64,000 nt of DNA from Aliarcobacter sp. (GTDB lineage Bacteria; Campylobacterota; Campylobacteria; Campylobacterales; Arcobacteraceae): assembly GCA_028703945.1 (NCBI GenBank), contig JAQVLW010000008.1, positions 7,288 through 71,287 of the forward strand, read 5' to 3'. The notes beneath the pieces are model-generated. The model searched no databases, had not been told where the DNA came from, and saw only the letters and a program-made list of their open reading frames with translations. Positions 32,749 through 55,324 of this stretch are shown here, in pieces (the stretch's first letter is position 1; every line of letters begins with the position of its first letter). Made by a program: the position numbers and the translations under genes.

Positions 32749-34620
32749 ATGGATTATGATGTAATTGTTGTTGGTGGTGGTCATGCAGGGATTGAAGCCT
32801 CACTAGCAAGTGCAAGAATGGGTAAAAAAACTCTTCTAATTACTATGTTAGTAGAGCAAATAGGAGCAGCTAGTTGTAACCCCGCAGTTGGAGGACTTGC
32901 AAAAGGTCACTTAGTTCGGGAACTTGATGCAATCGGTGGAGAAATGGGACTTTGTACTGATACAGCTGGTATTCAATTTAGAATATTAAATGCCTCAAAA
33001 GGTGCTGCTGTTCAAGGAAGTCGAGCTCAAATTGATATGGATAAATATAGAGAGTATATGAGAAAAGTTTGTCATAATACTCCTAATTTAGAAGTTTATC
33101 AAGATGAAGTATCTTCACTATTAGTAAATGATAAAAACGAAGTTTATGGCGTTAAAACAAAATTAACAGAAGAGTTCACTTCTAAAAAAGTTATCATAAC
33201 AACTGGAACTTTTATGAGAGGACTGATTCACATTGGTGAAAATAGTTATTCTGCTGGACGAGCTTGGGAATTACCATCTAGCACACTTTCAATTCAATTA
33301 AAAGAATTAGGTTTAAATGTTGGAAGATTAAAAACTGGAACTCCATCAAGAATTGATGCAAACTCTATTGATTTTTCTTCTATGGATATGCACGGTGGGG
33401 ATGTAAATCCCTCACCTTTTTCATTTAGAACAGATAAATCAAAATTTGCACCAATACAATTTCCCTGTTATATCACATATACAAATTTAGCTACCCATGA
33501 AAAAATATCTTCTAATTTTTATAGAGCGCCACTTTTCACAGGTCAAATTGAAGGACTTGGACCTAGATATTGCCCAAGTATTGAAGATAAAGTAAATAGA
33601 TTTAGCGAACGTGATAGACATCAACTATTTTTAGAACCACAAACTGCTATGTGTACAGAGTATTACATAAATGGTCTTAGTACATCTTTACCAATTGATG
33701 TTCAAAAAGAGATGATTCACTCAATAAAAGGTCTTGAAAATGCAAAAATTGTTAGATATGGTTATGCGATTGAATATGATTATATCGACCCAACTGAATT
33801 AAAACATACACTTGAAACTAAAAAATTAAAAAATCTTTATAATGCTGGTCAAATAAATGCGACAACAGGTTATGAAGAAGCCGCAGCTCAAGGATTAATG
33901 GCAGGAATTAATGCAGCACTTGCAATTGATGAAAAAGAGCCATTTATTCTAAGACGAGATGAAGCTTATATCGGAGTTTTAATTGATGATTTAGTTACAA
34001 AAGGAACTAATGAACCATATAGAATGTTTACATCACGTGCTGAATATAGACTTCTTTTAAGAGAAGAAAATGCTGATTTAAGATTATCTCAATATGGTCA
34101 TAATTTTGGTCTAATAGATGATAACACAATGGCAAAAGTAGAAAATAAAAGAAAAGTTATAGATGAAGCAATTGAGTTTATGGCAAAAGAATGGGTAACT
34201 TCTAAAAAAGAGACTTTAGAATTACTTGAATCAATTGGTGAAGAAAAAATAAATGATAAAGTTCTACTTGTAGATTTAATAGGTAGAAATACTATTGATG
34301 CACCTAAATTTGACAAATTAGTTCCTAGCCTTGCTTCAATTGATGAGTATTTAAAAGAGCAAATTATTATTGAAGCCAAATATTATAGATATATTCAAAA
34401 ACAACAAAAACAAATTGAAAAAATGAAAAAAATGTTAAAAGCAACTATTCCTGAGAACTTCTCTTTCAAAGGACTTGCTGGATTATCAAATGAAGTTATT
34501 GAAAAATTAGAAAAACATAGACCACCCACTTTATTTAATGCAAGTCTTATTTCTGGAATTACACCAGCGGCGCTTGATATTATTCATCTAAACATTAATG
34601 TAAAATGTCAGAAGCAATAA
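32749..34620 (+). CDS. mnmG: tRNA uridine 5-carboxymethylaminomethyl modification enzyme MnmG; last 4 codons and stop come from the transposon end
   Basis: [32 protein letters not shown] motifs; final TGT CAG AAG CAA TAA lies inside the left end. Confidence 0.97.
34601..34605 (+). repeat. Target-site duplication, left copy (TAAAA)
   Basis: TAAAA directly before TGT at 34606; identical 5-mer at 55304-55308 directly after ACA. Confidence 0.9.
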
Positions 34621-34675
34621 AAATTGATAATGAACCAATATAAATTGATAATATGTAAAATAAAAATTGATAATG
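34606..34675 (+). repeat. Transposon end with three contiguous TnsB-type sites
   Basis: CAATAAAAATTGATAAT (34615), CAATATAAATTGATAAT (34636), AAATAAAAATTGATAAT (34658); 21-22 bp period. Confidence 0.88.
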
Positions 34676-34690
34676 AGAGTTTAATCTAGC

Positions 34691-36382
34691 ATGGCAAAAA
34701 AGAAAAGTATCATTCCTGAGGTTATGGTAAATAATCCTGAGGATACTTTTCAATTCCTATTTCCCTTAAAAATAATACTTGATGAAGATAAATTTAGTAA
34801 TAGTCATTATGAAGTTGTTGTTAAAAATATGGATAGTAAAGAAGTATTTACTTATCAAGTATCTCCAGAACTTTTATTTACACATTATCCACTTTGTAAA
34901 TCATTTAAAAATGGTGAAAGAATTGAAAAAAATTCAAACAAAGATATTATTGATAAAAGCTTTATAATAAATACAAAACTTGTAAATGAGCATAATTTAA
35001 GAAAACTGACTGATATTTTAGATGATAAAAGTGTTGGGACTTTATTAGGTTGGAATCTTAAATATGTAAATAAAGCAAAATATATCAATTGCTATTTAAT
35101 TGAACAAGATAATATAAAAATTATCATTCCACACTTTGCAATAGGTATATATTACTATTTTAGGTTTTCTCAATTAAGAGAAGCTGTATTTGATTCTACT
35201 TTAAACGAACTATATATTATATGCGAAGATGATAGAGCTAATGCAAAAATAGTATTACCCACTTATAGAACAGATGAAGATGCAGCTTTTATACATAGAT
35301 TTGCTTGTCAAAAAAATGCAATTAAAGAGTTTGATAATGTATCTAGATATATCCATAACTATTTGAAATTTATGCAAGAAAACAATTTAGATAATGATAT
35401 ATATAAAATGCATTTGAAATTTAATTTCCCAACAAAAGAAGAATTCCAAATTGACACTAGAAGTTCACTTGTTACAAATAAAGAAACGAATGAACAGTAT
35501 TATTTTATTCATGAAATCACAAATGATTATTCAGATATAGGCTTTGAAAAACTAACAAAAATTATAGAAAAAAATAAAGTTATTTTAAATTTAGGAGATA
35601 TAGAAAATCTTCCAAAAGTAGAAAAAGATATTCCAAATGAAACATCTGAAGTATTAAAAATAACACATGCAAGTAAAAGAAATACTCAAACTTATCATCA
35701 AAAAGATAGAAAAAAAAGTTGTGGTAGTTTAAAAAACATTTCTATAGATGAAGAATCTTCAACTAGAGATATTATTAATGATTTACTAAAAATCTTCAAA
35801 GAGCAACAAACTGACAATATAACTGATCAAAGCTTAACAGAATCATCTTCAAAAGGCAATAAAACAATTAGAAAGGTAGTTATTTCAAGTGAATTTGTAA
35901 AATCAAAACCTTTAACTGAAATAGATAATTTTGTAGTTTTCAATCAATATATAAACTTTTTACAACAACGTGCTGATATAAAAGATTTTCATTTAAATGA
36001 AAAAAAAGATTTACCGCAATATATATTTGAAGATGATGAAACAAAAATCAATCCAAAATGTAAAATAAAAAAAAGACCTAGACAATATCTAACAGCAACA
36101 TTTAAATATGAAAATTCTTATGTTGGACTATTAGAATTAGAAAACAATCCATCTTCTGGAAATTCTACTTGGGTAATAATTTCTAACAAACCAATTAAAA
36201 CTGAACATTTTGAATTTTTTATGAATCTATATTTTAAAAAAGATATAGGAATAGATAATATAATAAAAAATCATTCTCAAACTAATCCTAAATTTGCTAA
36301 AAAGAATCATGAGAGAAATGAAAAATTAAATGAAATCCAACTTGGGAAATGGTATGCTGGGTTGCTAGGAAAAATTAAATAA
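34691..36382 (+). CDS. TnsE-like target selector (putative)
   Basis: 563 aa; IIIPHFAIGIYYYF segment and C-terminal RPRQYLTATF...VGLLELE...NSTWVI resemble TnsE regions; next to the transposon end. Confidence 0.55.
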   Translation: MAKKKSIIPEVMVNNPEDTFQFLFPLKIILDEDKFSNSHYEVVVKNMDSKEVFTYQVSPELLFTHYPLCKSFKNGERIEKNSNKDIIDKSFIINTKLVNEHNLRKLTDILDDKSVGTLLGWNLKYVNKAKYINCYLIEQDNIKIIIPHFAIGIYYYFRFSQLREAVFDSTLNELYIICEDDRANAKIVLPTYRTDEDAAFIHRFACQKNAIKEFDNVSRYIHNYLKFMQENNLDNDIYKMHLKFNFPTKEEFQIDTRSSLVTNKETNEQYYFIHEITNDYSDIGFEKLTKIIEKNKVILNLGDIENLPKVEKDIPNETSEVLKITHASKRNTQTYHQKDRKKSCGSLKNISIDEESSTRDIINDLLKIFKEQQTDNITDQSLTESSSKGNKTIRKVVISSEFVKSKPLTEIDNFVVFNQYINFLQQRADIKDFHLNEKKDLPQYIFEDDETKINPKCKIKKRPRQYLTATFKYENSYVGLLELENNPSSGNSTWVIISNKPIKTEHFEFFMNLYFKKDIGIDNIIKNHSQTNPKFAKKNHERNEKLNEIQLGKWYAGLLGKIK

Positions 36383-36475
36383 TTGGCATTCCTAATTAAT
36401 AATACTATATTATAATAGTTTTAATAGCTGTATTTATATATAGAAAGAAAAATATATTAATAAGCTTCAATTATT

Positions 36476-37513
36476 TCAAATAGTAAACTTGATATTATGT
36501 TTATTTTCATTTAATTCAAAAACAATTTCTTGCTTTGTATGTTTTATAATTTTTCTTTTACCATAATCAAACTCTTTATGATGATTAGGACATAAAATAA
36601 GTATATTTTCCTTGTTCTCACTACCTTTATCTTTTTTAGGAATAATATGTGCTGCTTCTATATAAAATGAACCATCACTTTTTTTAATCGTCTCATTACA
36701 TATTTGACATTTAAATTTTCTTTCTCGTTTTATTCTAGAAATTAAGACATTATTTCTCTTATAAACTTTCCCATTTAAGGTTATAGTTTCACTTATATTA
36801 TCTGTAAGATCTGGTATATCATGTATAGTTTGTTCTATTTCTTCTTGTTCTATTACATCATAGTTTATTTCTTCTTTTAAATAAATTTGGTAAATATTTT
36901 TTAGTACATCAATCTCTTTACTATAGATATTATCTTTTTCTAATTCCTTTAATTCATCAATTATAATTTCTTTTAAAATGTTCATGTCATCATAATAACT
37001 GATTCCTCTTTGTCCAACTAAACGATTTCCCTTAGTGTATTTTTTATACTTATCTGAATTTAAGTAGTATGGAAATCGTAACGATAAATTCTTGTTGGCT
37101 TTAATATTTGAAAATAAAGTATCATTTTCAAATTTTTCATATTTTGTCTCTTTTCTTGTTTCAAGAGTTTTAACATTAGCATAAATTCCAACAATTTGTC
37201 CCAAATTTATCTCTGTATTATTTGAATAAAATATAAATACTCCACCATTTAAAAATTTCCTAAATTTTGCATTATTGATTTCTACATAACCATAAATTTC
37301 ATTCTCAATATCAATACTTTTATCAAATTTAAAATTTAATGATTCATGCCCTGGAAACTTTTTAGCATATTTATGATGTGCTTTTGGATTTAGTAGAGGG
37401 TTCTCCCATCCACTATTATTCCATGACAAATTACCAATTACAATTGAATTTTTAATCATTTCAAATTTTCTTTCTTTATTTTGTATCAAATTGTTTGATA
37501 ATGTTTCCGTCAT
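36476..37513 (-). CDS. HNH endonuclease with uncharacterised N-terminal domain (type IV restriction-like); likely start 37459
   Basis: C-terminal CQIC...IEAAHIIP...ENILILCPNHHKEFD (McrA-like HNH). Confidence 0.8.
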   Translation of the reverse strand: MTETLSNNLIQNKERKFEMIKNSIVIGNLSWNNSGWENPLLNPKAHHKYAKKFPGHESLNFKFDKSIDIENEIYGYVEINNAKFRKFLNGGVFIFYSNNTEINLGQIVGIYANVKTLETRKETKYEKFENDTLFSNIKANKNLSLRFPYYLNSDKYKKYTKGNRLVGQRGISYYDDMNILKEIIIDELKELEKDNIYSKEIDVLKNIYQIYLKEEINYDVIEQEEIEQTIHDIPDLTDNISETITLNGKVYKRNNVLISRIKRERKFKCQICNETIKKSDGSFYIEAAHIIPKKDKGSENKENILILCPNHHKEFDYGKRKIIKHTKQEIVFELNENKHNIKFTI

Positions 37514-38456
37514 TATAAACTACAGCAAATCTATTATAATTAGTAGAGTTAATAACATCCATAAAATATTCTTGATTTATAGGAAATCCTTTAGTGGTAA
37601 TTTCATTTATGTTATAGTTTTCCTTAAAAAGATATGGGTTAACAATAAATTCTGATTTTTTATCTTTTGATATATATTCAATTCCAAATATAAAGTGAGG
37701 GAGTAGTCCTCCTTTAATACTAATTTCATTTTCATCAGAATAACGTGCTTTATAAGTTGGTAAATTGTATTTTTTACATAATCTACCAAAATAGCCAGAA
37801 TTTCTACTATATACAGCAAATTTAAGATAAGGCTTTGTTAATATAAAATGAAAAATTAATTGTTCACTATCTCCTGAAAAATCTAATGCTATTCTATGAT
37901 CTACTGTAGTCGAAATATAATGTGAATATTTTTCAACAGATGTACCCATTGTATGTAAATACGCATAATAATAATCTCTAATACTAAGTTTATCTCTAGG
38001 ATTAATTGATTGTATTACTTCTAAAAATTCACGCTCTGTTGTATTTTCAAAATATCTCTCAAACTCTGTATTTTCATCAAGAATTTCATCATTTATGGTG
38101 TTATATATAAAGTTAAATGTATCATCTGAAATATCATTAATATCCAATAAATAATTTCTTCTAAGTTCATTTTTATTATCTAATTTAGCTATATCATTAT
38201 AAAAATTTGATGCCTTATCTCCTACCATAAATAATTTATCAAAAACATCAAAAATAGAATTACAATTTAATCTACTCAGTTGATATTTCATTTTAATACC
38301 TCTGTAAAGCATTAAAATATCCTTATTATTTTCATTTATTAATTCAATACTCTTAGTTAAGATATCTTTTTCATCTAAGGTTAACTCTTTTTTAGTATTA
38401 CCATGAACAGTATAAGTATTTGATGGAATTTTATAAATATCCAAATTCTTCTCCAA
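37476..38456 (-). CDS. Putative R-S-E class ADP-ribosyltransferase
   Basis: Ordered motifs LYRG, YISTT and ENEISIKGG, like LT/CT A-subunit LYRA, YVSTS, EQEVSALGG; no signal peptide. Confidence 0.6.
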   Translation of the reverse strand: MEKNLDIYKIPSNTYTVHGNTKKELTLDEKDILTKSIELINENNKDILMLYRGIKMKYQLSRLNCNSIFDVFDKLFMVGDKASNFYNDIAKLDNKNELRRNYLLDINDISDDTFNFIYNTINDEILDENTEFERYFENTTEREFLEVIQSINPRDKLSIRDYYYAYLHTMGTSVEKYSHYISTTVDHRIALDFSGDSEQLIFHFILTKPYLKFAVYSRNSGYFGRLCKKYNLPTYKARYSDENEISIKGGLLPHFIFGIEYISKDKKSEFIVNPYLFKENYNINEITTKGFPINQEYFMDVINSTNYNRFAVVYNDGNIIKQFDTK

Positions 38457-38700
38457 AAATTTTAGTGATTATTTTATCTTATATTGACATGAATATATTT
38501 CTATAAATTCAAGTTATTTTAAAAATCTTATTATATAATCAACACGATTAAAGCACAACAGCTCTGCTAACGCTCTCACCCATTTGGGTATGTGAACCTG
38601 TATTTTTTAGTTACTTTGTGAATAGTTGCAATAGTATCTATACGAGGAGAGCAATATAGAAATTACACTATTGGAATTACATTATCAAAGGACAATCTAA

Positions 38701-39303
38701 GTGAATAGACTAGCTAATAAATCTTATGAGGCAATACGTCAAGAAGCAAAAGACTATGCTAAAACTCATAACCTAAAACTAACACTATCTCAAACAAAAG
38801 TTGCAAATTTTTATGGATTTAAAAACTTTTCAATTTTAAGAAAGTACTTTGATAAAAAATTACGTTCTAAAAAAGGAGATATTATGTTAGAACAATTAAA
38901 CAATATTAAAAAGAATTTAAAGAATATTAGAGAAAGAAAAGTTTCATCAAAAGAGATGCATGATTATCTGAATTCACTTAATCAAGAAGAATATTCAACT
39001 TTGGCTACTGCCTTTATAATTGGACGTCAGAGCTGGGATAGAGGAGTATATCAAGATAGTAATGAATGCTCTGCTTTCATAGAAGAAAATGAAGCTTATG
39101 GAATAAAGACGACAAGTCAAATGCTTGATGAAAAGTTTTTGACAAAAGAAGAAAGAAAAAAACAATACGATTTAACATATCAAATGGAAAAAAATGATGC
39201 TATAAAAATAGATAATTCTTACAATCATGATTGGCTTTCTTCTAAAACAAATTTAATAACTGAAACAGAAAAAGGGATTAAGCTAATAGAAGACTTAATA
39301 TAA
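38701..39303 (+). CDS. Hypothetical protein with a second strong internal start at 38884
   Basis: GTG start with AAGGA RBS; in-frame ATG at 38884 preceded by AAGGAG; helical motif YLNSLNQEEYSTLATAFIIGR (DUF3775-like, tentative). Confidence 0.6.
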   Translation: MNRLANKSYEAIRQEAKDYAKTHNLKLTLSQTKVANFYGFKNFSILRKYFDKKLRSKKGDIMLEQLNNIKKNLKNIRERKVSSKEMHDYLNSLNQEEYSTLATAFIIGRQSWDRGVYQDSNECSAFIEENEAYGIKTTSQMLDEKFLTKEERKKQYDLTYQMEKNDAIKIDNSYNHDWLSSKTNLITETEKGIKLIEDLI

Positions 39304-39307
39304 AAAG

Positions 39308-39329
39308 ACTGGAGCAATAATGTTCCAGT
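39308..39329 (+). terminator. Intrinsic terminator hairpin
   Basis: ACTGGAGCA-ATAA-TGTTCCAGT right after the 39303 stop, facing tniQ. Confidence 0.55.
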
Positions 39330-39411
39330 TTACTTAAAATTTTTTGGAGCTTGTAAAATAATCTTAACCTCCATACTATTTTATATTTAATTTTTTATAG
39401 TATTAATCTAT

Positions 39412-40596
39412 TTAATTAAATAAATGAAAATTATTTAAATTTTTATAAATTCTATTAAATCCTTTATGAATACTAGGATGACATCCAACAATTTCAGCAA
39501 CAGTTATAACATTAACTCGTTCACCTATAATTTCTAAATATTTTATTGCTCCGATAACTTCACTTTCAACTATTTCTCTGCCTTTTTTGTTTTCTATTGG
39601 CACTAAATCAAATATCAGATTTTTATACCAAAAAGAAGCATCTTTAAAGCCATGTAAAAAATCTCTATAAGTGATATGGTTTTCTTTTGCAAATTTTTGA
39701 AGATTGTGTGGATAGTTCTGGAATAAAAAGTAAATCATTGCCGTTAGGAAAAAATCTTTATAAATCATACTTACTTTTTTTGAACTATAATTTTCAAGTT
39801 TTTTGCAAAGATTCTTATACTCATTTATTAAAGGAAAATCATCTAAGATTAAACTTTCTTTTCTATCAAGTAAATAAACAAATCTTTTAAAACTATCAAA
39901 TACAAAAACCGAATGAACTTTTTGATTATTGATTATAAAATAGCCCTTATCTAAACCTTTTTCAAACCATTTTACAGTTTTTAGTCCATACTCATAGTTT
40001 GATTGGATTTTTGTAAAAAGTGTAGTACTTAAATCTTTTTCACATTTACTACAAACTGCTAGATTTTTATTATGTTTTATCTTTGAAAAATTAATCTTTT
40101 CATAACAAACCCAACATCTATCAGTTAAAAATATTTCATGTTTAGTACAAACATTATAAAATTGGTATCTCCATTTTTTCCTAAAATATGGAATTCTATC
40201 TTCAGCTAAACATTTTGGGCAATACATCAAGCCATAATGATTTCTTTTATCTACTAATCTTCTTATTTCATTAGGTGGGTATAGACAATTATTACAAATA
40301 TATAGAAAACCTTCTTCACTTCGAAGAGACATTTTAAAAATATCTTCTTTAGTCAAATTACTTTTATTTACTAAAGCTTCATATAATTTTTCATCATACA
40401 AAAAATCTATATCTGTCCTTGAAATCTGACTCCCCTCTTTTTTTACAAAAAGAGTTAAAAAAACTGAGAGTTGTCTTTTATGCTCAAGAGCAACTCGTGT
40501 AAGCCAAGAGCTTAATAATTCATCTGACAAAGGTTTTGGCACTATTAAAAAGAAATAGTCTTGAACCCAAGCATTATTTCTTTTTCTTTTTGACAT
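39412..40596 (-). CDS. tniQ: TniQ/TnsD-family target selector
   Basis: PKPLSDELLSSWLTR, YCPKCL...W...CTKH...L.DRCWVC zinc motifs; C-terminal HTH-like VAEIVGCHPS. Confidence 0.9.
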   Translation of the reverse strand: MSKRKRNNAWVQDYFFLIVPKPLSDELLSSWLTRVALEHKRQLSVFLTLFVKKEGSQISRTDIDFLYDEKLYEALVNKSNLTKEDIFKMSLRSEEGFLYICNNCLYPPNEIRRLVDKRNHYGLMYCPKCLAEDRIPYFRKKWRYQFYNVCTKHEIFLTDRCWVCYEKINFSKIKHNKNLAVCSKCEKDLSTTLFTKIQSNYEYGLKTVKWFEKGLDKGYFIINNQKVHSVFVFDSFKRFVYLLDRKESLILDDFPLINEYKNLCKKLENYSSKKVSMIYKDFFLTAMIYFLFQNYPHNLQKFAKENHITYRDFLHGFKDASFWYKNLIFDLVPIENKKGREIVESEVIGAIKYLEIIGERVNVITVAEIVGCHPSIHKGFNRIYKNLNNFHLFN

Positions 40597-40597
40597 T

Positions 40598-41467: not shown

Positions 41468-41470
41468 AAA

Positions 41471-44950: not shown

Positions 44951-46746
44951 TGCCAACTATTACACCAAAATATTTAGGTTCAATCAATGATAATATGCAT
45001 AACAATAATTCACCTGTAGTTATGAAACGAGTTATAAAAGTTAAAATAAGTGAATTGGCACAATGGTTTCAATATACTAGAGAAAAACAAGGTGGACGGA
45101 ATCCTTTTAAAGTATCTGACAGCTCCCTAATACAAATTCATGAAAGAATCCAAAGAGGAAAAAATGAATCAGGTTTTGTGTTACAAGAAAAGAATAAAAT
45201 AGATGAGATAAAAGAAATTTTGTTAGGAATACATAAAACTAATAAAAAAATATACCTAGGTTCTTTAGTTTGGAATATTAGAAAAATAGATACAAATAAG
45301 TTTGACATATTATCAATATCTAAACTAGATGGCTCGTTACCTGAGTACAAATTAGAGATTGAAGTAAATAAAATATACTTAACTGATTCCGCACATAGAC
45401 ATTTCGGGATAGTAGAAGCATATAAAGAATATCAAAAAAATTCAGATTTATATCCATTATTTAATGAAAACTTTGAATTTTTAGTTGAAATATATAATTT
45501 AACAGCTGATGATGAACAAAACTTATTTAATGAACTAAATTCTAAGCAAAAGAAAATAACAGCTGCTAAAGAAAAACAACTAGACAATAGTACCCCTCTT
45601 GGCAAAATAAAAGATGAAATAATTGATTATGATATGGAAAATGAAAGAATATTTTATAATAATATTGAATTAAACTCAAATCAAAATACTAGACATACAT
45701 TGATGACAATGTCAGTTTTTGTCGCAAGTATAAAAGAAATGTTTAAAAATGAGATTAATGAGGTTTATGCTAATGATACAGTTAATGATACATTAAAAGA
45801 AGACATTGTTTCTTACTATTGTAACTTTTTCGGTGAGTTAAAGAATACAATAATAATTAAATATATCAGTATAACTGGTGAAGAAAAAAATATTTCTCCA
45901 TTTGAGAATTTATATATGAAATACATTTATATTGTTGAAAATGCAGATTTTGATAATGATGAAATATATGAAAACAAGCTTGAGGAAGCAAGAAATACTG
46001 CCAAATTAATAAATTCAAAAATTAGAGAACAGGATTTAATAACGCATAATATTACAATTAAAGCATTATCGAGACTAGGAAAATTAATACGAAAGATGTC
46101 AAATTGGAAAACAGTTATTGAACAAATACAACAAAACTTAATTATTGGATATGATGGAAAATTCTTACAAAAAACTAACAGTGAACTTTTTGAAGCTTAT
46201 CCAGGGAACCAAGAAGCACTAGTAAAATTTAATGAAGATGGTTCTTTAAATATGCAAGTTGTAAGTTGGAAAACTAATGAGCTATTTCATTATTTTACAG
46301 ATAAATTAGAATTACGAAAAGAACCTATTTTATTTTTTGACCAAGATGATTTTAAAAAAATATTAACTAATAATGATAGTATAAAAGTTTCAATAAATAA
46401 TCCCACTATTATTAAGTTTAAACATACATTCTTTATTGCAGATAATTTATATGACGAAATCACAACTAATGATTTGAATATGAATATACTTGCCGTAGAT
46501 AATTGGAGTAAAATTAAATTTACAGGCAAGACTTCTTTTAAGGCAATTATCAAAGATTATGATGAAGGATACATAGATGAAGTTTATGATAGAGGAATCA
46601 GAAAAGCCACAGCAATTTTTGAACTAACACTTCCAGCCTTTGAAAACGAAGCTCATTTAAAACACGGATTAAGAATAAAAGTTAAATCATTTAATATTTC
46701 ATTTGATAATGAAATTGATTATATATTAAGTACTTTTTCGGAATAA
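44950..46746 (+). CDS. DndB/DGQHR-like protein with variant DSAHR motif, 598 aa
   Basis: YLTDSAHRHFGI and EQNLFNELNSKQKK resemble the DGQHR core; start overlaps the queC stop. Confidence 0.65.
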   Translation: MPTITPKYLGSINDNMHNNNSPVVMKRVIKVKISELAQWFQYTREKQGGRNPFKVSDSSLIQIHERIQRGKNESGFVLQEKNKIDEIKEILLGIHKTNKKIYLGSLVWNIRKIDTNKFDILSISKLDGSLPEYKLEIEVNKIYLTDSAHRHFGIVEAYKEYQKNSDLYPLFNENFEFLVEIYNLTADDEQNLFNELNSKQKKITAAKEKQLDNSTPLGKIKDEIIDYDMENERIFYNNIELNSNQNTRHTLMTMSVFVASIKEMFKNEINEVYANDTVNDTLKEDIVSYYCNFFGELKNTIIIKYISITGEEKNISPFENLYMKYIYIVENADFDNDEIYENKLEEARNTAKLINSKIREQDLITHNITIKALSRLGKLIRKMSNWKTVIEQIQQNLIIGYDGKFLQKTNSELFEAYPGNQEALVKFNEDGSLNMQVVSWKTNELFHYFTDKLELRKEPILFFDQDDFKKILTNNDSIKVSINNPTIIKFKHTFFIADNLYDEITTNDLNMNILAVDNWSKIKFTGKTSFKAIIKDYDEGYIDEVYDRGIRKATAIFELTLPAFENEAHLKHGLRIKVKSFNISFDNEIDYILSTFSE

Positions 46747-46750
46747 ACTT

Positions 46751-47548
46751 ATGATTGAATATGAACTTTTTTATGAAAGATTAAATAACAAACGATGTTT
46801 AAAAAGTAATCGTATTTTGAATAAAGATGATTTTCTGATTAGTAGCAAAGAGTTCGTTAACTTATATCAAACTACATATAGTGAATCGGAATATAAATTT
46901 ATAAAAAATATTATCTCATGTATACATGCAAATAATAGAAATATTTTATTATTAAATGAACTATTACTAAATAGAATTCAATCATTCTTTAATTTATTAC
47001 TGAAATCAGACAAACAATATATTAAAGAGCGAGTTATACATTTATATATTTTCTTATTTTGGAACAAATTAACTGGAGATACTGAATTCATAAATAAAAT
47101 AAAAAAAGAAGAATTGTTATACGAAGGTCAAGTTATTGATAATACAGATAAGTTTCAACAAAATTTACTACCGAAAATAGCAAATAATTGTGATTTAATC
47201 TATTATAACCACAAAGAAAGTACACTTGAGTTAATTGAGATAAAAAATGTTGATTTAGACGATAGAGCAATCGCTCAAATTCAAAGATATTATCGTAATA
47301 CAAACTATATTTGTGAAACAATAGATCATCAACTAAGTATATTATATTTAAAACCAACATTAATAATTAAACATGAAAATTTAACTCAAAATCAAACTAA
47401 AACTTCACTTTTAGAACATTGGCAGACATTTCCAACATATTTTAAAGAATTATTGAATATATATAGTTTTGAATTTTGTTATACAAAAGAAACATTAAAA
47501 CTCATTAATTTAAAACCAAAATTAAAATCATTACTAAAAAACAACTAA
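46751..47548 (+). CDS. PD-(D/E)xK nuclease-family protein (NucS-like C-terminal motif)
   Basis: CDLIYY...LELIEIK...RAIAQIQRYY. Confidence 0.6.
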   Translation: MIEYELFYERLNNKRCLKSNRILNKDDFLISSKEFVNLYQTTYSESEYKFIKNIISCIHANNRNILLLNELLLNRIQSFFNLLLKSDKQYIKERVIHLYIFLFWNKLTGDTEFINKIKKEELLYEGQVIDNTDKFQQNLLPKIANNCDLIYYNHKESTLELIEIKNVDLDDRAIAQIQRYYRNTNYICETIDHQLSILYLKPTLIIKHENLTQNQTKTSLLEHWQTFPTYFKELLNIYSFEFCYTKETLKLINLKPKLKSLLKNN

Positions 47549-47571
47549 CTATACAAATTTAGGATTATAAT

Positions 47572-48129
47572 ATGTCAAAAAAACAATATGAAGAACAAAC
47601 AAAGAAACAAACAAAATGTGAATTTTTAATTAATGTGTATAATCTATCTTTTAATAATATAAATAGGCATATTACAATAGTTTGGCAATCAGTAAGTGTT
47701 TTAATTGCTTCATTTGTTTCAATTATATTTAGTGAAAAATATAACATATCAATTTATCCATCATATACTATATCACTTGGATGATAGCTCATCTATTAGA
47801 TAGTAACACTTGGTATAGACGAAATATACATATTATAACAAATATAGAAAGACAAGAAAAGGTTACATTATTTTTTCACTAATCATCTAGAGCCTAAAAA
47901 GATTATAGATACTTTTCTTATTCAAATTTATTTTGCTTTAATAGTATGGTTTATATCTTTATTTTATACATTTTATAAAGCAACTAGAGAGGTTTAATTT
48001 AGTTTATTTCTTCACATCTTTAGCTTTTACTATGCTATGTATTTGTATTTTGTATACTTATCATAAAAAAATATTGAAAATATTAAAAAGTTACTACACG
48101 AATCTCCTGGTGTAAATATGAAAGATTAA
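47572..48129 (+). pseudogene. Frameshifted remnant of a multi-TM membrane protein
   Basis: Successive frames give ...VWQSVSVLIASF / WMIAHLLDSNTWYRRNIHIITNIERQ / LHYFFTNH...IQIYFALIVW / KKLLHESPGVNMKD*. Confidence 0.5.
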
Positions 48130-48166
48130 GTTATGATAGCAATAATATTAATAAGAATGGAGAAAT

Positions 48167-48925
48167 ATGATTAATTTTTTACAAAACCGTACATTATTGA
48201 ATAAATTAGAGATAAGTTCAAATTTTATAAGTCAACGTATGATATATGATTCTCATGCTATTCAATATTTGAGGGAATTACCTCCTAATTTCTTAGAATT
48301 ACAATATAAAAGAAATAAAAAAGAAGAAATTACAAAACATTTAAAAAGTATATATTCAAATATAACTGATGAAAAAGTCGAAAATGTTCTATCTCGCGTT
48401 CAAAATTTAATTAAATATGTAACAAATACAAATAGAAAAGATTATGAAGATTTTACAAAACAACATAATTTTAAAGAAAAAAACTGGAAGAGAATTGAAA
48501 GATGTGAAGTTTGTGGTTTCAAATTTAGAATTCAATCAGATGCAACATTAGAACACGTTTTGCCTTTATCTTTGGGTGGAGCTGATAATGATACTAATTG
48601 GCAATTATTATGTAAATCATGTAATGGTCATAAAACAAATTACTGGGGAGTTTCTGATTTAAAACTTGTTGACTCCTTTATTTCTAAAGATATATTAAAA
48701 CTTACAAAAGTTGAAGATATTCAAAAAAGACTTCCAAAAGATATTAAATATTTTATTATAGAATCTCAAAAAAGAAAATGTTCTTATTGCCAAAACACTA
48801 GTAGTGAAGCTAAAATAGAAGTAAAATTAGAACTTACCTCAGTTTTAAATATAGATAGTTTTAGTACAATATGTGAAACATGCATAAAAACAAAAAAAGT
48901 ATCTAGAAATATATTATTAAATTAA
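48167..48925 (+). CDS. HNH endonuclease with a second degenerate CxxC...CxxC module
   Basis: CEVCG...LEHVLPLSLGGADNDTNWQLLCKSCNGHK; later CSYC...ICETC. Confidence 0.88.
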   Translation: MINFLQNRTLLNKLEISSNFISQRMIYDSHAIQYLRELPPNFLELQYKRNKKEEITKHLKSIYSNITDEKVENVLSRVQNLIKYVTNTNRKDYEDFTKQHNFKEKNWKRIERCEVCGFKFRIQSDATLEHVLPLSLGGADNDTNWQLLCKSCNGHKTNYWGVSDLKLVDSFISKDILKLTKVEDIQKRLPKDIKYFIIESQKRKCSYCQNTSSEAKIEVKLELTSVLNIDSFSTICETCIKTKKVSRNILLN

Positions 48926-48937
48926 AAAGGAGATAAT

Positions 48938-50065
48938 GTGCCAAAATGGTTTACATTTCCATGCCAAATTATTAAACAAGCGAAAGATGCACCAGAAATT
49001 GCAGTTTTTACATGTGATGCGTATGATTTATTTGAAGTTTCAACAGTTTCAAGACTAGAGGAATCTAGTGATGGATATCAACGGATGATTAATAAAAAAC
49101 GACAAAATGATATAAGCAAATACATTGATACTCCGAGAGCTCTTATTCCAACATCTATTGTGTGTGCTGCTGAAGAAAATGATGATTTAGTAAAAGTTGT
49201 CAATAAAAAACAAATAGAAGGTACAATAGATAGATGGACTGCTGATTTAAAGATAAAGTGTGATAAAAATAAAAAACCTTGCTTAGTGATTGATGGTCAA
49301 CACAGATTGTATGGTATTGCTAGTTCTTCAAAACCCACTTTTCCAGTTTCTGTTAATCTATTATTAAATGCTAAAACAGTAACCCAAGTTTTACATTTTA
49401 TCATTATTAATAATAAAGCTACAAGAATTGGGAATGCTTTAATCAATGAATTAAAAGGAAATATTGCCCATCTAAGCCAAAAAGAAGATGAAGAATTAGA
49501 ACATTTATTGTCTCAACTTGGTGTGGAAAGCATTACAAATGAAACATTTATAAGTTTATTGAATGATGAGAAAAATGCTTTCGGTAATATTTTAGATTTC
49601 AAAACTAATAAGATGCAAGTGGTTAGTTCTCAAACTTTAAAAACATTAATCAAAAAAAGTAGAACTTCTGGATTTTTATCTAAAATAGATAATAATGATG
49701 AAAATCAAATTATTGCATACAACTATATGTGGGAAGGCATTAAAAAATCTTTTGAAAAAAGATGGGATTTCGAACTAAGTTTAGCTACTGAAGTTTTACA
49801 GAAACAAAAGACAAAAACAGATTTTAACAAAGAGAAAAAGATTTTTCATAGTGGTGCGATTGATGTTATTGGTGGATTATTAGATGATGAGTTAAAAACA
49901 ACAGCCTATCGAAGAGAATGGGAAGAAAATATTAGCAAAGTTTATGATATTACGGTTAAGATATTATCAAAAGTACCAAAAAGTTTTTGGGAGGAAATTA
50001 CAATAGATAATACTTCCAAAGGGAAAAGAGATTTTAGAGAAAAATTTGAAAAAGCAATTTTATAA
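48938..50065 (+). CDS. DGQHR domain protein
   Basis: GYQR, LVIDGQHRLYG and FIIINNKA motifs; GTG start with AAGGAG RBS 12 nt after the HNH stop. Confidence 0.88.
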   Translation: MPKWFTFPCQIIKQAKDAPEIAVFTCDAYDLFEVSTVSRLEESSDGYQRMINKKRQNDISKYIDTPRALIPTSIVCAAEENDDLVKVVNKKQIEGTIDRWTADLKIKCDKNKKPCLVIDGQHRLYGIASSSKPTFPVSVNLLLNAKTVTQVLHFIIINNKATRIGNALINELKGNIAHLSQKEDEELEHLLSQLGVESITNETFISLLNDEKNAFGNILDFKTNKMQVVSSQTLKTLIKKSRTSGFLSKIDNNDENQIIAYNYMWEGIKKSFEKRWDFELSLATEVLQKQKTKTDFNKEKKIFHSGAIDVIGGLLDDELKTTAYRREWEENISKVYDITVKILSKVPKSFWEEITIDNTSKGKRDFREKFEKAIL

Positions 50066-50719
50066 GTATTTTTCCCATCCATCCTTTCTAATCAAACATG
50101 ACGGGCACTCTCCACACCCATATCCCCAATCAAATTTGGTGATATGGTCATCGTTATAGCAAGTATGAGACTTTTCTAAAACTATTTCAAGTACTCCTTC
50201 ATCTTTTGATAATCGAAAAATTTCTGATTTGGTTAAATTTATAAGTGGATAGTGGAATTTTATATTTGATTCACTTCCTAGATTCAGAGTTCTTTCAATA
50301 TTTATTATAAATTCTTCCCTACAGTCTGGGTATCCCCTATAATCTGTTTGGTTAACCCCAATAATAATATTATCAATTTCTTGCTTTTGCGCAAAAGCAT
50401 GTGCAAGTGTGAAAAATATTGCATTTCTATTGGGTACAAATGATGAGGGTAAGTTTGTTTTGACTCTATGATGGATAGAAATATCTTGAGTAGAATCTAT
50501 AAGTGCAGAATCATTAAGTTGGGTAAAAGCACTGATATTCAGAAGTGTATTTGGTACACCTAAAATATCAGCTATTTTTTTGGCTTGCACTATCTCAATT
50601 TTATGCTTTTGACCATAATCAAAAGTAATCGTCTCGACAAAATCAAACCTATTTTTTGCCCAACCTAGACAAGTAGTACTGTCTTGCCCACCACTAAATA
50701 CAACTAAAGCTTTCTTCAT
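50060..50719 (-). CDS. queC: 7-cyano-7-deazaguanine (preQ0) synthase
   Basis: FSGGQDSTT, FVPNRN, GYPDCR, TCY...CGECPSC. Confidence 0.95.
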   Translation of the reverse strand: MKKALVVFSGGQDSTTCLGWAKNRFDFVETITFDYGQKHKIEIVQAKKIADILGVPNTLLNISAFTQLNDSALIDSTQDISIHHRVKTNLPSSFVPNRNAIFFTLAHAFAQKQEIDNIIIGVNQTDYRGYPDCREEFIINIERTLNLGSESNIKFHYPLINLTKSEIFRLSKDEGVLEIVLEKSHTCYNDDHITKFDWGYGCGECPSCLIRKDGWEKYL

Positions 50720-50722
50720 AAC

Positions 50723-51859
50723 TTATCCTTTCAAAAGTTGTTGTAATAAGAAAATCCTAAATAAATCAATATCTTTACTTGTATTTTGTATATCCATTAT
50801 ATTTCGAATATATCCATCGTCAGCAAAATCATATTTACCCTTTTGCCAATCAATTTTATCTTTAATAGGTTCTAAATATTTCTCAAAATCTGAGATAATA
50901 TATGACCCCTCTTCTAAATAATTGGGATTCTTTCTAAGAATCTTTTTATAAATGATATTCTCCATTATATTTGATAATGCCAATATTCCTACTCCATGAG
51001 TTAGCCTTGTTTTAGTAGGTGGTAATTTCCAATCTTTTGGAAAAGTTTTTTCTACTGCCCCCCAAAAAGCATTTAAAAGACTAACCATTGAATCAATGTC
51101 ATTAGTAGCCTTTCCTGTTACAACATTTGATGTAAAATTAAACAAGGTTCCATTCATAAGACTCGCATTTAAAAGCTTTATAATCGTATTGTCTTTTATA
51201 TATCCATCAGGAAAGGTATGTGTCTTTATTGTATGAAAAAAAGGAGAATGTGTTTGAGTATTTAATATGGAGATTAATTTATTTGGTATTAATTTATCTT
51301 TATATGTAGAAGGTAACTCACTATTAACTTCTGGCAACAACTCATATATAAGTGATTTTGCAAGTGGTTTAGTATTATTTATAAGAATAAATTGTTCTCT
51401 TTGTTCATCCGTATTATCTGTTATAAATGCATTAACAACAACCTCAAAATTCTTATTTTGAAGAGTATTCAGAGCTGTTGCTCTTTGTTGTCCATCAACT
51501 ATTTGTCCATATATATTATCTTGAGGAATACAAATATAACCAAAATCATCATTTATTCTTTCATATTTAACATTTGAATCAAAACATACAACTATTGAAT
51601 TTGCAAGTATAGAATTTTCATCTGTAAGATAATTAACTATCTCTTTTATATGTTTTGAAACTTCTATTCTTTGGTACCCTAATAGTCTACCGGTATCATC
51701 TCTTTTTATTCTATCAATTGATGCAAAATTTAGGATATCTTTTCCCATTGCTTTAAATGTATAGACTTCTTTATTATATTGTTTTATTTTTATTGCTGGA
51801 AATTTTAGCATATATTGTATTCCTTTCTTAATTCCTCTAATTCTCTTTGAAATTGCCAT
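50723..51859 (-). CDS. dpdB: DpdB-like DGQHR protein, second copy (likely start 51811)
   Basis: RIKRD...GYQRIEVSKHI, IVDGQQR, EQFILINNTKPL, TRLTHGVG. Confidence 0.75.
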   Translation of the reverse strand: MAISKRIRGIKKGIQYMLKFPAIKIKQYNKEVYTFKAMGKDILNFASIDRIKRDDTGRLLGYQRIEVSKHIKEIVNYLTDENSILANSIVVCFDSNVKYERINDDFGYICIPQDNIYGQIVDGQQRATALNTLQNKNFEVVVNAFITDNTDEQREQFILINNTKPLAKSLIYELLPEVNSELPSTYKDKLIPNKLISILNTQTHSPFFHTIKTHTFPDGYIKDNTIIKLLNASLMNGTLFNFTSNVVTGKATNDIDSMVSLLNAFWGAVEKTFPKDWKLPPTKTRLTHGVGILALSNIMENIIYKKILRKNPNYLEEGSYIISDFEKYLEPIKDKIDWQKGKYDFADDGYIRNIMDIQNTSKDIDLFRIFLLQQLLKG

Positions 51860-53052
51860 AAATTATGAAAACCTCGTCTTCTATTCCGATTTGAATTTCT
51901 AAATATAATTGTTTCTATCTTTACACTTTGACAAATCTCACATTGACATCGTTGCCAATATTTTGAGGAAAGAATATCTCTGTATTTGTCAATAGGTACT
52001 TTATCTCTAAAAAGAATTTCGTAATTTCCTAAATGCATTAGAACATTTTCTAAACTTTCATTCCCCTTATCATAAGAACGAATAGAGTCCAGTGCCTTTT
52101 TTTCTAAAATTTGGGCTATCTTTTGGTCAACAACACCAGAAGAAATTTTTCTTTTTAATGCAGGAGTACTTACTGCTGAGGGTATTCTTATTGCCGTATA
52201 ATATTTAGTTGGAGTAAAATAATTATCTTTACTATCTTTAAATGCTTTGATTAATGGTGATGTTGAATCAAAACTAGTAATTTTATATTTTACAAATCTT
52301 TCAAGTTGTTTTGCTTTTGCAAAACCAAGAAGATGTAATCTTATTTCTAAACCAATTTCTTCTCTTACTGCTTTTACTATTTCTTCACAAGAATCAACAT
52401 CCAAAGGAACCATTCCTCCGATTGCTATATAATCATAACCCATTTCAACAAGTTCTCTTGCAGCTTTTTTCATACTTAATGGGGACCAAGCCTGAATTAC
52501 ACCAATAGGATGAAATTCTACTTTTTGTTTTTTGCATTCTTTTAAAAATTCTCTTGCATTATTTATTGTAATATCATATCTCTTTTGCATCTCTTTTGTA
52601 ACTTGAAACTTATCATCAAAGTCTGAATCAGTATCAAATCTTTTATCATATTGAAATATAATATGATCTACAGACATTCCATAGTCAAACATACATTCTT
52701 CATAATATTTAACGGTTTCATCTACTTTATAAGGAGGTTCATCAAGTTGATGATAACTAAATGCTCCGTTATCTCCAAAAACCTCACCTTCATAATATCG
52801 TAAAAATCGTTTGACCCCCTCCATTTTTAATCGGATGGTTTGTTCTGAAGAATATGCTCTACTAGATGATTTATAAACTCCATCATCTAATAATCCTCTC
52901 GAAATAAGCATACCATCATAAGGTTTCTTTTCAAAAACTTCATGTGGATATTTATCTGTTCTTTGAATTACTCTATTTTTTGAGAACTCATCATTTATAA
53001 AATCGTAATTAGGGTCTATTGTATCTTGACAATCTGCAAATATAAATTTCAT
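51805..53052 (-). CDS. dpdA: DNA 7-deazaguanine transglycosylase DpdA (TGT-like)
   Basis: F.D.QD.IDPNYDF...YPHEVF..PYDGMLIS, GDNGAF, SVDH, LHLLG, SFDSTSP, C.C.IC...RRGFHN. Confidence 0.88.
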   Translation of the reverse strand: MKFIFADCQDTIDPNYDFINDEFSKNRVIQRTDKYPHEVFEKKPYDGMLISRGLLDDGVYKSSSRAYSSEQTIRLKMEGVKRFLRYYEGEVFGDNGAFSYHQLDEPPYKVDETVKYYEECMFDYGMSVDHIIFQYDKRFDTDSDFDDKFQVTKEMQKRYDITINNAREFLKECKKQKVEFHPIGVIQAWSPLSMKKAARELVEMGYDYIAIGGMVPLDVDSCEEIVKAVREEIGLEIRLHLLGFAKAKQLERFVKYKITSFDSTSPLIKAFKDSKDNYFTPTKYYTAIRIPSAVSTPALKRKISSGVVDQKIAQILEKKALDSIRSYDKGNESLENVLMHLGNYEILFRDKVPIDKYRDILSSKYWQRCQCEICQSVKIETIIFRNSNRNRRRGFHNLWQFQRELEELRKEYNIC

Positions 53053-53057
53053 GTTCT

Positions 53058-54236
53058 TTAAATCTCTTTATTAAATTGTCTAATTAAATATGCAGTTAAC
53101 ATTCTTTTATGTCCAGGAGTATTTTGTATTTCTTTCCATTCTAACCCTAATTCTTCCCATGTTCCACTAGACCATCGACAATATGATTTCAATTTAGTTA
53201 ATTCTTTAACCACTCTTATTTCTATTTTTTTATCATGCGGATTAACATTTCTCATAATTGTATCCATCAATGCCCCTATAGCAAATATACCTGTTCCATG
53301 CATGAGCCTGCTTTGATTAGTTGGTTTTCCCCAATCTTCATGAAACACTTTCTTAACTCCATTCCAGTAAATATATATGATTTTTAAAATACTTTCATAA
53401 TCTGTTTCTCCATTATTTGTATTTACATATGGAAATAAGCATCCGGCAGTATTATTTATTGAATTTCTTAAAATCGTAATAATAGAATTATGTGCAATTA
53501 CTGGTTTAAATGTTCCATCATTTTCAATTGATACCTTTTGAATCAAGCCATAAAATGGTGATTTAGGCTCAAAATTTAGTGATTCTGTTATAGATGAAGG
53601 AATTTTCCTCGAATCTAGATCAGAAGGGAACATCCCATTGATTGTTGGCAATAATTCATCAATTAAACCTTTTGGTAGAGGTTTTGTTTTATTTACTCTA
53701 ATAAATTGTTCTCTTTGTATTTCTAAATTATTCGCAATAAAAGCAATAACAGGTATTGGTAAATCTGGTTTATTACATTTATTTAAAGCCAAGGCTCTTT
53801 GTTGTCCATCAACAATCCAAGCTGGTCGGAATCCTTCTTCTTTAAGAGGAATACTTAAAATTCCACTCATAGAATATTTGTCCGAACTTAATTTACTTCC
53901 TCTTGCTTTTGTAAATTTTACTTCGTCGTTAATAGCTAAAAGAATTGAATTAGGAAATAAAATATTATCAGTATTTAAATATTCCAAAATATCATTTATA
54001 TGTTTTTTAACTTCTTTTCTTTGTAATCCATGAAGTTGTCCTTGTTCATCCCTATGAATTCTAGAAATATCAGCAAAAGATAATATATCTTTTGCTGGTA
54101 TAAAAAAACTGTATATTGTTTGACTATTTTGCTTTGTTTCTAAAGCTCTTGTTGTAAAACTATTTTTCATTATAAATACTCTTTTTTCTTTCATTAAATA
54201 ACTTATGAAATCTTTTTTGCTCGCAAGAATAAACAT
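53058..54236 (-). CDS. dpdB: DpdB DGQHR protein (likely start 54170)
   Basis: ISRIHRD...QRKEVKKHI, WIVDGQQR, EQFIRVNKTKPLPKGL, SRLMHGTG; directly upstream of dpdA. Confidence 0.82.
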   Translation of the reverse strand: MFILASKKDFISYLMKEKRVFIMKNSFTTRALETKQNSQTIYSFFIPAKDILSFADISRIHRDEQGQLHGLQRKEVKKHINDILEYLNTDNILFPNSILLAINDEVKFTKARGSKLSSDKYSMSGILSIPLKEEGFRPAWIVDGQQRALALNKCNKPDLPIPVIAFIANNLEIQREQFIRVNKTKPLPKGLIDELLPTINGMFPSDLDSRKIPSSITESLNFEPKSPFYGLIQKVSIENDGTFKPVIAHNSIITILRNSINNTAGCLFPYVNTNNGETDYESILKIIYIYWNGVKKVFHEDWGKPTNQSRLMHGTGIFAIGALMDTIMRNVNPHDKKIEIRVVKELTKLKSYCRWSSGTWEELGLEWKEIQNTPGHKRMLTAYLIRQFNKEI

Positions 54237-55059
54237 TCTTTCTTAACATAAATAGACCTTTTGATGCTGATGAAACTTGTTCTTCTTGAATTTGTTTATC
54301 TATTATTTTTTCCAACTCTCTATTTGAAAGTTGTTTACCTTTCTTAGAAACCTCTATTTCATATTGATTTAAAAATATATTAATATGCTCTTGCAAAACA
54401 TTATGATTTAATTCTAAATTATTTTTAACAATTTCTTTTGATAACCATCTTAGACATCTTTGTCCTAAATTTATTAAAGTTCCTGATTCATATTTATTAA
54501 ATCTAGTATCAAAATTCAGAAAACTTTTACTGAAACTTAAATTATTCTCTTTTGAAACATTAATTATAAAAACTTTATCTCCATATTTATCAATTAAGTC
54601 TTCAATATATTTATTCATAGCATTTAAATATTCTTTAGATAAATAAATTAGTATTACAGAAGCATCTACTAATTTGGATATAGAATATTCATTTATTTTT
54701 TCCCACCACATTTCATTTGGAAAATGTCTGGATACACTATCTAGTTGATTTCTTGAAAAGGTTATTCCATAAGATGAAATGATTTTATTTGAATCAATTA
54801 ATCCATAGCCAGCAGAAGCAATCAGCACTAATGTAGAAAATTTTATATTAAATTCTTTCTCTGTATCTAAAACTGCCTTCCAAGAAACACCTTTATACAA
54901 ATCTCTAGCTTTTAGATTCTTATATTCAGATTTTTCAAGATTCATTTTCCATTCTGAACTTATTTTATCAATAGTATCATTATTATAATTTCTAAATAAA
55001 TGTATCTCATTTGGTAATACTTTTTTACCATTTGTACAATTTGTTATTATATATACCAT
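54160..55059 (-). CDS. dpdC: DpdC-like (YaaA/DUF328-like) protein
   Basis: ARDLYKG...ASAGYGLI...ISSYGITF YaaA-like motifs; first gene of the dpd operon. Confidence 0.65.
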   Translation of the reverse strand: MVYIITNCTNGKKVLPNEIHLFRNYNNDTIDKISSEWKMNLEKSEYKNLKARDLYKGVSWKAVLDTEKEFNIKFSTLVLIASAGYGLIDSNKIISSYGITFSRNQLDSVSRHFPNEMWWEKINEYSISKLVDASVILIYLSKEYLNAMNKYIEDLIDKYGDKVFIINVSKENNLSFSKSFLNFDTRFNKYESGTLINLGQRCLRWLSKEIVKNNLELNHNVLQEHINIFLNQYEIEVSKKGKQLSNRELEKIIDKQIQEEQVSSASKGLFMLRKNVYSCEQKRFHKLFNERKKSIYNEK

Positions 55060-55235
55060 ACTACACTTTCAGTTTTATTTAATGTTATATTATATCTATA
55101 AATGTATTCTATTTTTATTAATTTATGCATCTCATTCCTTTAAATATTTGTATAATCTAACTATTCAATACTCTATTATCATATTATTTTTTACACATGA
55201 TTTTTTATCTTATTATCTTTAAATACAAAATATTG

Positions 55236-55257
55236 TACAATCGTGCAAAAAGAAGGT
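55236..55257 (+). promoter_or_regulatory. Putative outward-facing -10 box (TACAAT) and RBS (AGAAGGT) in the transposon end
   Basis: TACAAT at 55236-55241 resembles GATACAATCG upstream of pyrG; AGAAGGT 9 nt before ATG 55267. Confidence 0.45.
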
Positions 55258-55266
55258 ATTCAACAT

Positions 55267-55323
55267 ATGAAAAATCTATTATCAATTTTTATTGAATATG
55301 ACATAAAACAAAAAGAAGCATAA
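55267..55323 (+). CDS. Hybrid 18-aa mini-ORF (MKNLLSIFIEYDIKQKEA) crossing the right end
   Basis: Starts in the element, in frame with the displaced mnmG tail, stops 1 nt before ATG 55325. Confidence 0.4.
   Translation: MKNLLSIFIEYDIKQKEA
55278..55303 (-). repeat. Transposon opposite end with terminal TnsB-type site
   Basis: rc TGTCATATTCAATAAAAATTGATAAT; a weaker site may lie at 55175-55191. Confidence 0.88.
55304..55308 (+). repeat. Target-site duplication, right copy (TAAAA)
   Basis: Directly follows the terminal ACA; identical to 34601-34605. Confidence 0.9.
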
Positions 55324-55324
55324 T

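Follow-up and report, generated by a model that had tools for sequence, protein, structure and literature searches.

A Tn7-like transposon of Aliarcobacter with a strongly supported attachment site at the 3' end of mnmG

Tn7-like transposon families are valued for the one safe chromosomal site that each of them uses, and mini-Tn7 inserted at glmS is a standard tool for single-copy integration. Tn7 itself is moved by TnsABC together with TnsD into attTn7 behind glmS, with its clustered end facing the target gene, and by a TnsE pathway into conjugal plasmids; other site-specific families use yhiN (Tn6230), tRNA genes or, for the I-F3 CRISPR-associated transposons (CASTs), guaC, rsmJ and ffs. Here, we analysed a stretch of 64,000 nucleotides from Aliarcobacter sp. 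(assembly GCA_028703945.1, contig JAQVLW010000008.1, positions 7,288 to 71,287), referred to as a whole as the window, and find in it an element of 20,698 bp (34606-55303, or 34601-55308 with both copies of its TAAAA duplication) inserted in the last codons of mnmG (gidA). We put at about 85% the probability that this is an intact Tn7-like cut-and-paste transposon of the heteromeric TnsA/TnsB type, with the 3' end of mnmG as its dedicated chromosomal site.

Like Tn7 of E. coli, the element combines a heteromeric TnsA and TnsB transposase with the AAA+ protein TnsC and a TniQ-domain selector, and it shares with Tn7 the 5-bp duplication, the TGT...ACA ends, the clustering of sites at one end and their dispersal at the other, and a clustered end that faces, at ~20-55 bp, a conserved coding block near the 3' end of an important host gene. 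A TnsE-like second selector is probably present as well. Unlike Tn7, the element targets mnmG and not glmS, is inserted within the last codons of the gene instead of 23 bp beyond its stop codon, and brings a short tail and a new stop in its own end. Its TnsC is of a short TniB type, its selector has 394 aa compared to the 508 aa of TnsD, its tns operon lies mid-element and is transcribed towards the target gene, and the tnsE-like gene is detached and on the other strand. Two variable cargo slots flank the operon. The preliminary description had the four tns genes right but missed both the mid-element position of the operon and the conserved open reading frame (ORF) of 563 aa, ORF563, that is the candidate TnsE. 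A nested or tandem element was suspected from the position of the operon and rejected, as no end repeat at ≤1 mismatch occurs between 34675 and 55277, and the element is thus a single one with two cargo slots. An integrase-type island was also rejected, the element being without a recombinase.

A closer layout is that of Tn6022 and the AbaR-type elements of Acinetobacter, which have the same operon of TnsA, TnsB, TniB-type TnsC and short TniQ and, as described by Faure et al. 2023 (PMC10293859), encode a highly divergent TnsE far from the operon, close to the opposite end and on the other strand. ORF563 occupies this position; its own identity as a TnsE is only tentative. In contrast to Tn6022, the element is without TnsF, the inactivated tyrosine recombinase that partners TniQ, and in its compact relatives tniQ abuts the TnsE-like gene; it also occupies the 3' end of mnmG with the gene kept functional, while insertion of Tn6022 breaks comM in two at the Walker B motif. 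The TnsB proteins are only ~35% identical to those of the Acinetobacter relatives. With the yhiN, tRNA and I-F3 families the element shares the homing of a TniQ/TnsD-family protein or its partner to a conserved gene end in a fixed orientation (PMC10293859), but the attachment site differs and there is no CRISPR-Cas module. We regard it as a Tn7-like element with a new target site, laid out like Tn6022 but lacking TnsF. No resolvase was found among the Pfam matches in the element and TnsA is present, which sets it apart from the Tn5053/Tn402 (TniABQR) family, whose members have no TnsA, encode the resolvase TniR along with a res site and transpose replicatively.

The intact Tn7-like transposon that had been proposed from the letters of the window is confirmed in its ends, repeats and motifs. 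The termini TGTCA...TGACA belong to an inverted repeat of 27 nt with 89% complementarity, and the end site said to be shared by both termini is the 16-mer AATAAAAATTGATAAT, found on the + strand at 34616, 34637 (1 mismatch) and 34659 and on the - strand at 55278. These four matches at ≤1 mismatch compare with 0.17 expected, none of 100 shuffles reached four, and the 16-mer is confined to the two ends of the element. A 26-nt end pattern occurs exactly twice in the 2.33-Mb genome, both times as an end of this element, which by this search is single-copy in its host. TnsA, TnsB, TnsC and TniQ are all full length. The catalytic motif E..D76..E93xK95 of TnsA is present, as are D238/D322/E358 in TnsB, Walker A (GDSNNGKT) and Walker B (ILIDE) in TnsC, and the TniQ zinc ligands C126/C129/C150/H153 and C161/C164/C182/C185, all eight of which are invariant in 26 homologues. 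TnsA also has a TnsA-like match in NCBIfam (E 5e-9, 35.8 bits) that falls under the cutoff of 110. The features are collected in Table 1.

Table 1. Positions in the window of the transposon, its genes and the flanking host sequence
Feature	Position	Strand	Remarks
mnmG (gidA), 623 aa	32749-34620	+	Pfam GIDA E 1e-161 and both C-terminal domains
Conserved mnmG block GGnATnACnCCnGCnGCnnTtGAtATnnTnCAy, putative recognition site	34555-34587	+	18-51 bp from the insertion point
Target-site duplication TAAAA, mnmG-proximal copy	34601-34605
mnmG-proximal end	34606-34674	+	TGTCA terminus with three adjoining 16-nt repeats (offsets +11, +32 and +54), clustered as in Tn7R
ORF563, conserved core gene, 563 aa, probably a divergent TnsE (second target selector)	34691-36382	+	Next to the mnmG-proximal end
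Cargo slot 1	36476-39303		HNH nuclease 36476-37513 (-), 326-aa ORF 37476-38456 (-), 200-aa ORF 38701-39303 (+)
TniQ, 394 aa, putative mnmG-site selector	39412-40596	-	PF06527 E 1e-21, 78 bits
TnsC, TniB-type AAA+ adaptor, 289 aa	40598-41467	-	PF05621 E 1e-49, 168.6 bits
TnsB, DDE transposase, 633 aa	41471-43372	-	rve PF00665 and Mu-transpos_C PF09299, both over cutoff
TnsA endonuclease, 222 aa	43350-44018	-	PF08722 Tn7_TnsA-like_N 37.6 bits, cutoff 26.5
Cargo slot 2	44222-55059		Split queC 44222-44659 and 44717-44950, 598-aa and 265-aa ORFs, HNH 48167-48925, DpdB-like 48938-50065, QueC 50060-50719 (-), DpdB 50723-51859 (-), DpdA 51805-53052 (-), DpdB 53058-54236 (-), DUF6884-like 54160-55059 (-)
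Distal end	55175-55303	-	TGACA terminus, perfect repeat 55278-55293 and weaker repeat 55175-55190 ~90 bp inward; dispersed like Tn7L
Target-site duplication TAAAA, distal copy	55304-55308
Displaced native mnmG tail CAA AAA GAA GCA TAA (55309-55323) and downstream 278-aa host gene (55325-56161)	55309-56161	+

The last four codons and the stop of mnmG in the window (C-Q-K-Q-stop) come from the transposon end, and the native tail K-Q-K-E-A-stop is read beyond the element at 55306-55323, so that the insertion replaces this native tail with K-C-Q-K-Q-stop. A query of 800 nt made of the joined flanks gave a contiguous match of 88-89% identity in three genomes of the same genus (G021, G005 and G022). 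In these genomes the sequence across the junction reads ...AAT ATT AAG CAA AAA GAG GCT TAA T ATG, which is the predicted empty site with species-level substitutions; their mnmG has the native ending and overlaps the start of the same downstream gene. The same gene also follows the element in G014, G041, G046 and G083. The tail of MnmG after the helix containing a conserved His varies by species (KQKEA, FTKNPK, FNKKS, RNQNI), and because of this variation its replacement is probably neutral for the host.

A search for TniQ in 184 Arcobacteraceae species genomes found orthologues of at least 53% identity in 18 genomes from 9 genera, and a further seven full-length copies, of 49-61% identity and from four other families, came from a sample of 401 genomes of the class. 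Together these are 25 full-length tniQ copies of at least 49% identity from five Campylobacterales families, and 24 of them lie directly downstream of mnmG. The survey of insertion points that had been suggested could have shown close relatives at unrelated loci, and it did not. In 23 of the 25, a single conserved His codon of mnmG precedes the element end by 17-18 nt and the orientation is always the same, and the junctions of these 23 copies read into an end with TGTCA, TGTAA or TGCAA and three ~22-bp repeats, followed by an ORF563 homologue. With two exceptions, tniQ mapped on the strand opposite to mnmG and 2-21 kb beyond its 3' end. In G189, tniQ sits on a separate contig whose end is an mnmG 3' fragment fused to an element end, and this copy also conforms. 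TniQ proteins of ~30% identity encoded in the same genomes are located at other loci, away from mnmG. An alignment of 21 occupied sites from the five families showed that codon positions 1 and 2 of the conserved mnmG block are invariant and that all insertions fall 17-18 nt beyond the His codon on its 3' side. TnsD has its footprint in glmS at +23 to +58, a geometry that the mnmG block resembles, and by this analogy we infer that the block is the binding site. On the sequence evidence, the 3' end of mnmG as a dedicated attachment site is strongly supported.

Perfect 5-bp duplications (TAAAA, ATTAA, ATGTT, TATTT, TGAAA, TGAGA and TGAGA) delimit seven elements of 16.2-23.9 kb, the one in the window and six relatives. 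The proximal end has three contiguous repeats in all seven, at +11, +31/32 and +53/54, where the third repeat of G146 falls under the scoring filter and is visible by eye in the sequence. At the distal end, six of the seven (the window and five of the six relatives) have a repeat at +11 and a second one ~90 bp further in; in G146 only the first site scored, and in G083 there are additional weak matches. The ends are thus asymmetric, like Tn7R and Tn7L, and their repeats are putative TnsB sites. Proximal and distal are used here relative to mnmG, and naming by gene order, with the tnsA-proximal end as the right one, would swap the Tn7R and Tn7L labels. G146 (L058) has two candidate distal ends 1.65 kb apart, giving an element of 16,953 bp followed by TGAAG or one of 18,608 bp followed by TGAAA; the latter matches the duplication, and the 16,953-bp end may be an extra copy of the end.

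A shared position could in principle reflect a single ancient insertion inherited vertically, or homologous recombination in the mnmG region, instead of repeated transposition. All hosts belong to one order, and the conserved mnmG flank would permit recombinational transfer. Yet the site is empty in members of the same genus, the element is found in only ~10% of Arcobacteraceae species scattered over 9 genera, each of the seven duplications follows the mnmG sequence of its own host, and the junction varies by 1 nt (17 vs 18). The identities of TniQ and mnmG to those in the window are also incongruent, at 66% and 92% in G046, 90% and 89% in G041, and 76% and 83% in G047, respectively, and a complete copy with its own duplication sits at a site other than mnmG. 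We find this explanation barely credible, and vertical inheritance as such was rejected on the empty sites, the host-matched duplications and the incongruence. Degenerate end-like sequences (TCGCAGAATCAATAAAAATTGAT and TGTAAGAAGCAATAAAGATTGATGAT) occur at the same mnmG position in G016 (L017) and G015 (L018), only 5.5 kb and 1.9 kb, respectively, from the downstream gene. They look like decayed earlier insertions and point to turnover at the site.

It is also possible that transposition has ended in this host and that the copy in the window is a fixed relic, silenced or with subtly inactivated proteins. That it is single in its genome fits such a view, and its intactness is judged from sequence. 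We nevertheless consider a relic quite improbable, as the five core ORFs are full length with the catalytic motifs present, the terminal repeats and the duplication are perfect, and a sister element in G014 with a TniQ of 94% identity carries entirely different cargo, which implies recent mobility. The cargo in the window is absent from all 16 sister elements; what is common to all 17 Arcobacteraceae elements is the five-gene core and the architecture of the ends.

How the site would be recognised is a separate matter. In the mechanism that we propose, TniQ would bind the conserved coding block of mnmG and would recruit and orient TnsC, and TnsA and TnsB would insert the element with its clustered-site end towards mnmG at the fixed distance past the His codon. 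Codons and a stop from the element end would take the place of the non-conserved last 4-5 codons of MnmG, leaving the host gene functional, and the TnsE-like protein would probably open a second route, into DNA that is mobile or replicating. In the most divergent subfamily with an identical site (G011, G167 and G437), TniQ is 51-55% identical, compared to 43-47% for TnsC, 44-47% for TnsB, 36-39% for TnsA and 25-26% for ORF563, and the C-terminal half of TniQ is as conserved as its TniQ domain. TniQ is favoured as the selector because it is the best-conserved core protein in this subfamily. The preliminary description had spoken of a TniQ-directed mnmG site, of which the site is well founded and the director is suggested by conservation; within the overall model, we regard TniQ alone as the reader as fairly likely.

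Several observations weigh against parts of this picture. mnmG is not mentioned in the text and supplements examined of Faure et al. 2023 (PMC10293859) and Benler et al. 2021, where the site may nevertheless be listed without a name. The end of the G110 element (L063) is displaced downstream by a further 45 bp, where it follows the native mnmG stop and a hairpin resembling a terminator, and several far ends have no matching duplication (G168 and G167) or lie beyond the 20 kb that was fetched. In G437 (L083), the operon tnsA-tnsB-tnsC-tniQ runs the opposite way between the ends from that of all other family members; the TnsE-like gene and the end of this element still adjoin mnmG in the usual position. 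The assignment of ORF563 as a TnsE leans on a poor structural model and on fold matches with E values of 0.04-0.36. Finally, the reader itself is in question, since TniQ has only 394 aa and its fold matches the I-F CAST TniQ over the full length. The AlphaFold2 (AF2) model of TniQ (predicted local distance difference test score [pLDDT] of 77.7, predicted template modelling score of 0.71) gave full-length Foldseek matches with a probability of 1.0 to the I-F CAST TniQ (9gs9 and 6v9p) and also to TnsD (8v32). The TniQ of I-F CASTs does not bind DNA alone and needs a partner. In Tn6022, the closest described layout, the partner TnsF reads the site (PMC10293859).

Homing to mnmG could therefore be real and still depend on another reader, namely, ORF563, a complex of TniQ and ORF563, or a host factor, with TniQ confined to the role of TnsC adaptor. 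Such an arrangement would resemble the pairing of TniQ with TnsF in Tn6022 or with Cascade in CASTs. Faure et al. 2023 (PMC10293859) take a small TniQ to be typical of targeting that depends on a partner, and ORF563 is the sole other conserved core gene and stands at the mnmG-proximal end. On the other hand, ORF563 is the fastest-evolving core protein, differing most between subfamilies that use an identical site, whereas TniQ is the slowest; its fold and family signals are only to TnsE, a structure-specific and not a sequence-specific selector; and a TnsE-type role would fit the location of the sole off-site copy, on a plasmid-like contig. No recombinase-like Pfam match that would indicate a TnsF-like gene was found in the element, and in the compact relatives tniQ and the TnsE-like gene are immediate neighbours. 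A reader other than TniQ alone is, in our view, unlikely. Returning to TniQ as the reader, a bolder version is that the compact protein, for all its likeness to the CAST TniQs that do not bind DNA alone, reads the mnmG block by itself, with no TnsD-type extension, TnsF or Cascade. The element would then be a minimal integration system of four proteins, orientation-specific and native to Campylobacterota, with an end that has co-evolved to re-terminate mnmG at no cost and a divergent TnsE as the plasmid route. We offer this only tentatively, at somewhat less than even odds.

ORF563 was found at the identical position in 17 of 17 Arcobacteraceae elements with 25-86% identity, and this positional conservation makes it a fifth core gene. 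ORF563 itself has no match in Pfam or NCBIfam. Its close homologues carry the UniRef name 'TnsE C-terminal domain-containing', and Pfam TnsE_C matches 1 of 14 homologues (E 6e-4). Its AF2 model is poor, with a pLDDT of 49, and the top seven Foldseek matches in the PDB are all entries of the TnsE C-terminal domain (5d17, 9d5l and 5d16); a profile search of the ORF563 family against PDB sequences gave no match. These signals are consistent but weak, and ORF563 is probably TnsE-like. The one genome that could illustrate a second pathway is G446, which has one copy at mnmG and a second complete copy of 17.5 kb with a perfect CATAG duplication on the 28-kb contig C49 (L084 and L085, ~8286-25803). 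The contig also encodes a YafQ toxin, a helix-turn-helix protein and an ORF with a weak match to RepB primase (E 0.005, under the cutoff), and the tniQ of this off-site copy carries a stop codon. As a single case on a plasmid-like contig, it may be an example of a TnsE-type pathway. A tblastn search with TnsB against the plasmids in PLSDB found no family member, all matches being <40% identical, and gave no support for a plasmid pathway.

The preliminary description knew of no mnmG site in the Tn7 family, and in the open-access literature we likewise found no paper that links mnmG or gidA with Tn7-like elements, TniQ, TnsD, TnsE, TnsA or TnsB. Papers that name both mnmG and Tn7 are unrelated to mnmG as a target site, and in the parts consulted of Faure et al. 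2023 and Benler et al. 2021 the strings 'gida' and 'mnmg' appear only as letters inside protein sequences. A table in Benler et al. 2021 lists a Tn7-like element in an Arcobacter genome, which indicates that members have already been swept into catalogues without the site being named. The mnmG-homing family described here, with members in Aliarcobacter, Halarcobacter, Malaciobacter, Sulfurimonas, Sulfuricurvum and relatives, thus has an attachment site that is new to the searchable literature. It could yield a tool for site-specific integration in Campylobacterota, where such tools are scarce, and it raises a mechanistic question, namely, whether a short TniQ is able to read DNA unaided. The 3' end of mnmG would also be a predictable hotspot for defence islands in Campylobacterota genomes.

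In cargo slot 1, the HNH gene matches Pfam HNH_2 (E 8e-9) and is called by PADLOC as a type IV methyl-directed restriction endonuclease (E 2e-9). The reading of the neighbouring 326-aa ORF as an ADP-ribosyltransferase was not confirmed, as its Scabin-like match is below threshold (E 0.012, 15.9 bits against a cutoff of 27). Slot 2 encodes DpdA (NF041059, 500 bits, cutoff 200) and two DpdB proteins (NF041060, 361 and 424 bits, cutoff 300), which PADLOC also calls, together with QueC identified by Pfam. By its gene content, this is a 7-deazaguanine DNA-modification module and predicted anti-phage cargo, which agrees with the defence-rich cargo reported for Tn7-like elements by Benler et al. 2021. 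No dpdC-K restriction genes were recognised in the Dpd module (48938-54236). The module is unusual in that two full DpdB paralogues flank dpdA and a third, more distant DpdB-like gene is paired with an HNH gene. A second queC in this slot is split into parts of 145 aa and 77 aa that correspond to positions 2-121 and 151-205 of Pfam QueC, and it is probably a disrupted copy beside the intact one. At the distal end (55231-55327), the element passes without a gap into the displaced tail of mnmG and then into the beginning of the host gene that follows.

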